DNA of 36,878 nt from the UHGV virus genome UHGV-0228197. The stretch is one strand, 5' to 3'. This DNA comes from a virus. Made by a program: the position numbers. Below are positions 30,001-33,000 of this stretch, one piece after another (position 1 is the first letter of the stretch; each line of letters opens with the position of its first letter).

Positions 30001-33000
30001 CTGGCGACGCTGGCGATCATCACGATTAATCACCACCGCATGATTACGCCGCTTTTTCAGGCCATCGAGAAGATAAGCGAGCAACAGCCTTCCCACCTGC
30101 TGGCAGGCAAACTGGTAGTTATCGTTGATTTCGGCAAGGGTTGTGGCTCCCTGCTCCACCAGGTTGCTGATCGCCACGCCGGACGATGCATTTGAATCCT
30201 GCCCGAGAAATGCGGAATAAACCCCCATCGTGTCCTGGATAAGTTTTTCCGACTCCTGCATGACCTGAAACTGCTGGCTGGCAACCTGAAAATCCTGTTC
30301 AACCCGGAAAACATCAGCAACGCTTTTCTGATTTTTTCGGGCCGGATTCAGTTTAATAATGCCATCCGGACGCTCGATCTGCTCCATCAGCTCGTTGTCT
30401 GACAACTGGGTGGCATCCTCGTCCATAATCACGCGTTTGGCCTGAAGCAACCACGTCAGTTTTATACGACGAAAATTCACCTCATCCTGTGCCGGAATGG
30501 CCCGGGAAATCAGCCCGTAAGGCTCCCCGGTTTTATCCTTCCGGTATCCCTAGAAGGGAACCAGCGGGAACATCCCCTGCGGCGCACTGCAGGGGCGATC
30601 CACAATAAAGTGCGGTCCCACAAACCAGGCTTCACGAATACGACTTACCCGCCCGACTCTCACCTGCACCCGCCCGGATGCCACAGCCACCGCATGCATC
30701 AGATTATTTTTATCAAAGGCCACCACCCGTCCATTACTGAGTTCAATCACCGGAAGACGCTCGAATGTACGGTAATAAACCACCTGAAGCAGCACACGAC
30801 GGCGTTCACGCTGAAGCCATTCGTTCTCCTTACGATCCCATGACTGATACTCTTCCCATGCACTCATCAACGGACTGGGCTGGCCTTCAGTAACCGTGGT
30901 ATCGACAAAACCACGCCAGTCATCAATGGCATAATCGATAACCTGAGCCATTCCCGGGAATGTGGCTTTTGCCTCATCGGTATCCATCCAGCGGCGGCGC
31001 ATCAGCCAGCGGCAGTCACTTAAATCAGCTTCCCGGCTGAGCCAGTCCCAGAACACTTCATTCCGGCTGACAGTAGACACCTTAAACTCAGGCCCGAACG
31101 GATCGCTGTTCCGTCTGACCTCCACCCAGCTGAGCCCCGCCTTGATTTGTTCCGCATAGGCATCAGAGCGGGCTTTATTCATATTGCCAAGGCGGCATGC
31201 ATCGGCAAATTCAGCATTAATAGCTTCAGCCAGTTTTTCAGTTTCATCATCTGGCTCGTCTGACATCACCACCAGATCAGTCCGTGTTTTGGCCTCCATT
31301 CCCAGAACACCATCAACGGTAGGCGCGATGAGGTTATGGATAGTCATCGGCTGACCGCGATCTTTCAGTACCTGAAGAACTTCTGGTGGCAACTGGTCAC
31401 CATCGTAATACGCACAGGCCTTGTTTGCGGCATCGCGCCATTTAGGCTGACTGTCAATATCAGAACAAAGCGCCTGTAACTGGCGCTGAGAAAAACGCGG
31501 CGTGGCTCCGTTGTCGTTTTTCGTCGCCATGGTATTAGTTTCATTTTTCATCAGTGAGCCATCCAGTGTGTGGTTCTGCGTTTATCCGTTTTCTGTCTTA
31601 CCCTCACCGGCATTCTGGCGCGCATCTCCTGGGCAATCATGTAGCTCATAAGCTGATCATCAAAACAGCCTTCCTGTGCATTCATGGAGCCTTTCGCGTC
31701 ATAAACGTAGGTGTTCATTTCTGATAATGTGCCCGTCCAGCGGATCCCCGACAGGCCGTTATTCAGCAGCGTTTTCATTCCCTCAGTCAGGACCGGTTTA
31801 CTCTGGCGGGTTGTCAGCCAGCCAAGACGGGGCGTATCGTCGTCATATGCCTGGTCAAGGTGCTGTTCGTTGTAGATATAACGCGTCGGATAGAGTTCCC
31901 GGAGTTTCAGGATAACGGCATGTCCGTGATTGTTACGCTCCGGCCCCACAAACGCGTTGTTGTACATACGGCAGACCTGCGCAATGAGATGAGCGAAAAG
32001 CTCCGCATCGAGATGACCAAACCAGTGGGCTACCTGCTCACCATTACTACATCTGATGATATCCAGCGATGAGCGGTCTCCGTGCTCCAGCCCCTCAGCG
32101 GTATCCGCTCCGCATACATACTCTTCATCCGGATCCGGTAGCTCCCAGACCAGCAGATAATTCATCAGCGTCCGGTGCTGTTCGGCTTTATTCCCGTCAC
32201 GCAGAGACTGCGCTTTGGTCTTCGTTCCTGTAACCGGTTCAATGTCATAAACAATCAGCGGTGGCGAACAGAATGACTCTGCCTGCAGCGTGCTTTCCGC
32301 ACTGAACACCCGTCGTCCGGACGTCAGAAACGCCTCCTGTGGTGTTGAGGGAAACTCCTGCTTCATTTCCTCACGCTGTTCAGTTTCCTTGCAGATGTAC
32401 CAGTGTTTCTGCTCATCGGTAAGCGTGATGTTCATTGCTTTTTCAACCGCAGAAAAATACGCTGTTTTTTCCCGTGACAGCTTAAGTCCGCTTTCCGGCA
32501 CTCTGGCGCTGTATTTGAGATCCTGCCACCAGGCGTAAAAATGGAATTTATAATCCTGTGGCATCAGCGCCAGCCCTGATGCAGTGATTTCCTGTGCCCG
32601 GTTACTCATCTCGTAAAAATCGCCACCCACACCTTCAGCAGTGGATTCATCAAAAATAATGCACTCATCAGAGACGGCATTAAGTGTACCGGTTCGCAGC
32701 TCTTTCGCCTTAGCCGGATATTTTGCGCAAATTTTGCCGTGCTCTGAGATATGCAGGCGCTGCACCGTACCTGAACGGAATGAGGTTGCCACCTGGATAC
32801 TCGAGCCGTGCCCAAACAGGATATAGCCACCGCTGGCTCCGCTACGACGTTCAACGATGGTGAATGAGGCTCTCAGCCAGTCAGGAAGATGATCAAACGG
32901 TACAGCAATTTTGGTGCGGAAAATTTCACTGGCAGCCTGTTTATCCTGAGCGACAATCCCGCATTTGAGATGCGGTATGAATAATGCCTGGTCGAGAAGA

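Follow-up and report, generated by a model that had tools for sequence, protein, structure and literature searches.

The virus genome UHGV-0228197, a stretch of 36,878 nucleotides analysed here at its full length (the window), consists entirely of prophage, and the gene for the portal protein in its late operon is broken by one in-frame amber codon. The question raised by this locus is whether the codon has inactivated the gene, is read through or suppressed in such a way that a full-length portal is still made, or is an artefact of the data. The original prediction had offered a nonsense mutation leaving the prophage defective for head assembly, an amber allele maintained in a suppressor host, a sequencing error or, with less conviction, programmed readthrough. 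The comparisons presented here indicate that the locus is very probably a recently pseudogenised portal gene in a decaying Sepvirinae-like prophage of Escherichia coli, which by itself would be unable to make infectious particles.

On the minus strand, to which all coordinates of the late operon refer, positions 31551 to 29407 are translated as a single frame of 714 codons followed by a terminal TGA, and the only stop within it is the TAG of codon 334 (30550..30552). The two open reading frames (ORFs) that had been proposed to share a frame, 30550..31551 and 29407..30480, indeed do so, with 333 and 357 encoded amino acids, respectively, the second beginning at a GTG. The claim that this TAG alone breaks the portal frame is also borne out by translation, with the flanking residues exactly as they had been read (FPLVPF before the stop and GYRKDKTGEPYGLISRAIPAQDEVNFRRIKL after it), although the predicted length of 690 codons has to be corrected to 714, which equals that of the intact homologs. 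The continuity of the frame cannot be attributed to chance, since its 2145 nucleotides match the intact portal allele of NCCP15648 (WP_032188285.1) at every position except 30551, and are 99.8% identical to the gene of Shigella phage POCJ13 in DNA searches.

The intact allele, one base different, scores 439 bits against the Pfam family P22_portal (PF16510; cut-off 26.1) over residues 31-648, and the gene also matches PHROG 156 (portal) and is 96% identical in protein to the portal ORF60/ECs1221 of the Stx2 phage Sp5 from E. coli O157:H7 Sakai. Both halves, as called in the contigs that carry the TAG, are flagged PF16510 as well. The position of the gene is in agreement with this assignment, its start overlapping the stop of terL at 31551, directly downstream of the large terminase gene. 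The uninterrupted full-length frame of the portal family is absent here, the TAG falling at codon 334 of 714, and the gene (29407..31551) is a pseudogene of the P22-type portal family PF16510. The part predicted to be translated is an N-terminal fragment of 333 amino acids (30553..31551), in which the P22_portal domain is missing about its C-terminal half; the remainder (29407..30480) is a mechanical ORF call of 357 amino acids from the GTG at codon 358, and probably gives no functional protein.

Alignment to intact portal genes, which had been suggested as a means of finding the expected sense codon, gives TGG (Trp) at codon 334 in every intact relative examined: POCJ13, the prophage of E. 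coli O104:H4, FORC_069, AU5Stx1 and NCCP15648. The same codon is found in all the other fetched loci that cover this position, with the exception of the two carriers of the TAG described below. The records of the intact relatives contain an uninterrupted portal of 714 amino acids (WP_032188285.1, WP_000787512.1, YP_009100271.1), not two separate genes. The single difference from the NCCP15648 allele is the TAG base itself, a G>A change on the coding strand that corresponds to C>T on the plus strand at position 30551, and the polarity of the change runs from TGG to TAG. As judged from these alleles, the TAG is derived, not ancestral, and a G>A transition has turned a conserved Trp codon into a stop. 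The residue lost, W334, opens the motif P-F-W-G-Y-R...P-Y-G-L-I, and the alignment shows this Trp to be conserved even in the distantly related solved portal 8jov.

The distribution of codons at this position bears directly on the possibility of programmed readthrough, in which a dedicated recoding signal, or a phage-wide reassignment of TAG, would give a full-length portal. The frame downstream of the TAG is perfectly open, as such a mechanism would require; the openness is explained simply by the recent date of the mutation, the intact allele being otherwise identical. Nevertheless, the stop is not conserved, the intact relatives have TGG within identical flanking sequence, so that no readthrough element has evolved here, and only one clone carries the TAG. 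Reassignment is likewise opposed by the use of TAG as the normal terminator of 2 of the 26 genes in the window and by the single occurrence of an in-frame TAG, that of the portal, across all 26. The option of programmed readthrough thus finds no support in the intact relatives, and its probability can be regarded as practically negligible.

The TAG allele itself is rare in the collections searched. Megablast with a 41-mer centred on the TAG, a probe that seeds no hit when the central base differs, was negative for 5,426 complete E. coli genomes and for 50,697 phage records, and 401 bp around the site are present in 422 E. coli records. An exact 33-mer of the allele was also without a match in the GTDB species representatives, a poor choice of set for a within-species allele, and in the IMG/VR viral contigs and the JGI metagenome contigs. 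A Logan assembly of SRR10760837 does encode the exact 333-amino-acid product, on a contig common to two samples that matches the window over 11.9 kb at 100% identity, TAG included. The NCBI assembly GCA_012663405.1 has the same TAG, and over approximately 20 kb it differs from the window by one single-nucleotide polymorphism and by the number of repeats in the tail-fibre gene. Both carriers share with the window a second nonsense codon, described below, and other lineage-specific substitutions. No paper describing a W334-stop portal allele was found, and a literature search for the run accession SRR10760837 was also empty. A third candidate carrier, SRR25035323, was rejected: its partial product equals the 333-amino-acid fragment, but the contig ends exactly after codon 333 and has a POCJ13-type allele, and it was treated as an assembly-graph break, probably a branch of the graph, which provides no evidence for a TAG.

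The occurrence of the allele in separate public assemblies indicates that it is real, and by the same assemblies the TAG is an inherited allele of a small E. coli clone. These data also dispose of the case for a sequencing or assembly error, according to which the true base would be G and the portal intact. A difference of a single base from the nearest intact allele is what an error might produce; the same base is nonetheless present in both GCA_012663405.1 and the assembly of SRR10760837, each together with the second nonsense codon, and the site lies outside any homopolymer or repeat. The separate assemblies refute this option of the original prediction, and an error is exceedingly improbable.

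The second internal stop surfaced in a gene-by-gene comparison with the O104:H4 prophage. It is located in a head gene of 187 codons (25502..26065), assigned to PHROG 437 as a virion structural protein and homologous to ORF65/ECs1226 of Sp5, a putative scaffolding protein. The intact form of this gene is on record as WP_000829400.1. Codon 27 in the window (25985..25987) is an opal TGA, and comparison with relatives gives TTA (Leu) as the ancestral codon and T>G at 25986 as the change. The TGA is the sole difference of the entire gene from the NCCP15648 allele and, among the loci genotyped at codon 27, occurs only in the carriers SRR10760837 and GCA_012663405.1. An ATG two codons downstream of the TGA starts an ORF of 159 amino acids (25502..25981), and reinitiation at this ATG may render the second lesion partly leaky by giving a protein without 28 residues. 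The 159-amino-acid product was tried and discarded as a marker of the TGA lesion, since gene callers give the same 159 residues from intact TTA alleles by way of the internal ATG.

The opal codon is also relevant to the proposal that the amber allele is kept in a suppressor host (supE/supF-like), where a full-length portal would be made. Amber is the classically suppressible stop, and laboratory amber mutants in portal genes (P22 gene 1, lambda B), which have a conditional-lethal block in DNA packaging, are kept on suppressor strains. Those ambers were selected on such strains, whereas the allele of the window comes from natural-isolate data and has an opal companion on the same haplotype, which an amber suppressor cannot read. 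Moreover, the residue inserted by the common amber suppressors is Gln, Tyr, Ser or Leu, not Trp, and a Trp conserved as far as 8jov would not be restored. There is no tRNA gene within the window, the carriers come from public read sets and isolate assemblies and are not known suppressor strains, and the neutral-like pattern of substitutions described below needs no such host. The suppressor option is therefore considerably weakened by the absence of a tRNA gene in the window, by the opal companion and by the origin of the carriers, and appears highly improbable.

The consequences to be expected from the two lesions can be drawn from Sp5, an intact, inducible and stx2-bearing phage whose late genes have been deleted singly and in frame (Mondal et al. 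2016, PMC5155283). Sp5 in Sakai and the window have the same late order, terS-terL-portal-ORF61-MCP-ORF63-ORF64-ORF65-ORF66-tail fibre, with matching gene sizes, and the 187-amino-acid protein is 80% identical to ECs1226; they differ in that the Sp5 deletions were engineered and the lesions of the window are natural point nonsense mutations. The portal ORF60 and ORF65 are each essential in Sp5, deletion of either leaving no plaques, lysogens or DNase-resistant DNA, with packaged phage DNA, relative to chromosomal DNA, 100-1,000 times below wild type (PMC5155283). Deletion of ORF65 gave deformed spiral capsid structures, from which a scaffolding role was proposed, and ORF61 is needed for head formation (PMC5155283). 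The portal-less mutant still formed empty head-like shells, and what failed was DNA packaging (PMC5155283); the portal deletion in another Stx prophage also abolished packaging of DNase-resistant DNA (PMC6328086). The nonsense mutation and the resulting defect named in the original prediction are supported by this evidence; head assembly as such is not the step that fails in the Sp5 portal mutant, and the defect to be expected from the TAG is one of packaging and infectivity, not of shell assembly, because portal-less Sp5 still made head-like shells.

The sequence of events that best accounts for these observations would begin with a spontaneous and recent G>A transition, TGG (Trp334) to TAG, inherited in a small E. 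coli clone. Translation would stop after Phe333, and the fragment, lacking roughly the C-terminal half of the portal domain together with the motif that starts at W334, should fail to build the dodecameric portal ring used by the terminase for DNA packaging. With Leu27 replaced by TGA in the ORF65 homolog as well, the prophage alone should yield no DNA-filled infectious particles; by analogy with Sp5, both portal function and particle production would be lost. The genes for lysis, terminase, capsid and tail stay open, and those downstream of the stop would still be expressed, because the Q-modified RNA polymerase of lambdoid late transcription resists polarity. Neutral decay would follow from the lack of selection on virion genes during the vertical passage of a resident prophage.

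Prophages of this kind are known from E. coli O157, where a pool of resident lambdoid prophages with morphogenesis defects has been described, the mobilisation of which by helpers is possible (Asadulghani et al. 2009, PMC2669165). The defects in that pool include missing head or packaging genes and defective terminase (PMC2669165), whereas the lesions of the window are two clean substitutions and its late region is open elsewhere, which would place the decay at a very early stage.

Some points weigh against this interpretation. A chromosomal suppressor tRNA, or a related co-resident prophage supplying the portal in trans, is possible, and genomes of the O104:H4 type hold two such portal genes. 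The two carriers are so nearly identical to the window that they document reproducibility within one clone, not an independent origin, and a high ratio of non-synonymous to synonymous divergence (dN/dS) is expected for any very recent divergence within a clone, which deprives the substitution pattern given below of the value of a stand-alone proof of prior non-function. Defective prophages of O157 Sakai, including some without head genes, are packaged with help from other prophages, and Stx1 and Stx2 phages recombine (PMC2669165). The lesion may then be real and yet be complemented or repaired, either by a co-resident 933W/Sp5-like prophage that supplies the portal and an ORF65-like protein or by recombination that restores the genes, the element still spreading within the pool of defective prophages. 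The portal and ORF65 deletions of Sp5 were each complemented in trans (PMC5155283). Related E. coli genomes carry up to three copies of the portal region, and Stx-phage portal genes are approximately 94% identical in DNA. The window, for its part, holds one such prophage and no sign of a helper, and rescue in trans would alter what the lesion entails but not what it is. Such a rescue is rather unlikely, although it deserves to be kept in mind.

The interpretation as ordinary decay is in agreement with the substitutions accumulated in the lineage. They are the positions where neither intact relative agrees with the window, counted outside two evident recombination patches and after closer outgroups had been added. 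The 20 lineage-specific coding changes comprise 13 missense, two nonsense and five synonymous substitutions, and the resulting ratio of non-synonymous or nonsense to synonymous changes (15:5) contrasts with 93:210 for the two intact relatives compared with each other (Fisher p = 1e-4). The proportions in the lineage are neutral-like, as expected under relaxed purifying selection: random mutation of the same genes gives a probability of 0.23-0.28 for a synonymous and about 0.04 for a nonsense change, and GC>AT transitions make up 12 of the 18 isolated changes. The pattern looks like unfiltered mutation, and needs neither selected inactivation nor a mechanism that keeps the function.

Selected inactivation, or domestication, in which the loss of portal and scaffold-like genes would have been favoured in the host lineage, has to be considered nevertheless. 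Two of the four genes needed by Sp5 for head formation and packaging are affected, whereas the tail, lysis and terminase genes are all open, and the disease-related role of an Stx prophage does not need virion production (PMC6328086). Independent portal lesions also exist in other samples. A second amber on the same portal allele, Q355 CAG>TAG, is present in ERR9716488 and SRR28555587, and SRR22225576 has a remnant that has lost portal gene positions 236-1005 by internal deletion and that adjoins host genes, the Pfam families of which suggest the sap/puu region. These lesions were, however, found through the exact 357-amino-acid product, a query that detects breaks only between codons 328 and 357, and within this interval only W334 and Q355 are convertible to a stop by a GC>AT transition. 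The recurrence at codons 334-355 can accordingly be ascribed to ascertainment by the exact-product query and to the GC>AT mutational signature, as ordinary decay predicts from mutation pressure and ascertainment. Furthermore, two or more nonsense mutations among 20 coding substitutions are within neutral expectation (P = 0.17-0.21), and portal loss would not save an induced cell from lysis. Domestication is thus very unlikely. The same low probability applies to another form of non-neutral loss, in which the prophage would be kept for functions dependent on induction and lysis and not on virions, such as the release of cargo, or as a helper-dependent member of a pool; if it were true, the recurrent portal knock-outs (W334am, Q355am and the internal deletion) would reflect selection.

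The remainder of the window is consistent with a near-complete late region. DNA searches place it among the short-tailed 933W/Sp5-like phages (Sepvirinae), and the non-Stx prophages of E. coli O104:H4, FORC and NCCP15648 strains are 98-99.9% identical to it over about 30 kb. The portal alleles of these prophages and of POCJ13 (Diegovirus) are 1-10 bases from that of the window, and these relatives, unlike the window, have an uninterrupted 714-amino-acid portal and an intact 187-amino-acid gene. In the nearest relatives, the interval from Q to the lysis genes contains no stx; the window itself extends no further than 13 bases upstream of the start codon for holin. The minus-strand set includes genes for holin, lysozyme, Rz, the small terminase subunit (33238..34053, intact), the large terminase subunit (31551..33257, intact, with one lineage-specific change, T232M), the portal, a 335-amino-acid head protein homologous to Sp5 ORF61 (28242..29249, intact) and the major capsid protein of the N4-gp56 / Phage_capsid_3 type (27005..28219, intact). 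Small virion genes, a tail-fibre gene with collagen repeats, tail genes and the gene for a 2,783-amino-acid LPD38-type protein complete the set, and all late genes other than the portal and the ORF65 homolog are open. Two further candidates were rejected in the course of these comparisons. An apparent stop in a small gene at about 4700-4970 corresponds to an indel polymorphism that is also present in the annotated NCCP15648 version, and the lysozyme substitution R76Q, considered as a lineage marker, is not lineage-specific, the query having returned other prophages with intact portals and no stx upstream.

Several further features of the region were noted. The tail-fibre gene (22930..24855) includes a collagen-like Gly-X-Y array, variable in copy number among close relatives, the product measuring 641 amino acids in the window, 635 in O104:H4, 671 in NCCP15648 and 662 in GCA_012663405.1, and short-read assemblies break within the array. 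Between this gene and the ORF70 homolog, the cassette at 21702..22930 is unlike that of the O104:H4 prophage, a divergent ORF with a Gp38_N domain (22332..22889) and a small ORF (22044..22256) replacing a gene of 181 amino acids and cor. At the N-terminus of the ORF70 homolog (541 amino acids), approximately 40 substitutions and two indels are clustered at 21560..21700, a patch more suggestive of mosaic recombination than of point decay. The tail genes on the same strand are accompanied by genes for a Hok/Gef-family toxin (16705..16845) and a Lom/Ail outer-membrane protein (17078..17815). On the plus strand, an Ais-like histidine phosphatase gene (34623..35237), the counterpart of which is labelled lipopolysaccharide core heptose(II)-phosphate phosphatase in RefSeq, lies antisense to the late operon between the Rz and small terminase genes, and is probably a moron. 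Accessory genes of early type at 1..4700, also on the plus strand and convergent to the late operon, encode an AntA/P22AR antirepressor, TraR, DUF4752, Ead/Ea22 and DUF551, and are strongly mosaic with respect to the closest prophages, with patches of 84-99% identity.

The interruption of the portal gene is an event of a known kind, the early and ordinary decay of a prophage, and not a recoding signal; it has no bearing on the open questions of recoding or suppression. For annotation, the two ORFs belong together under a single portal pseudogene entry, and the prophage, in spite of its near-complete appearance, is to be scored as not self-transmissible. It illustrates cleanly how prophage decay sets in, with two point nonsense mutations in essential head genes and an otherwise open late region of 30 kb.

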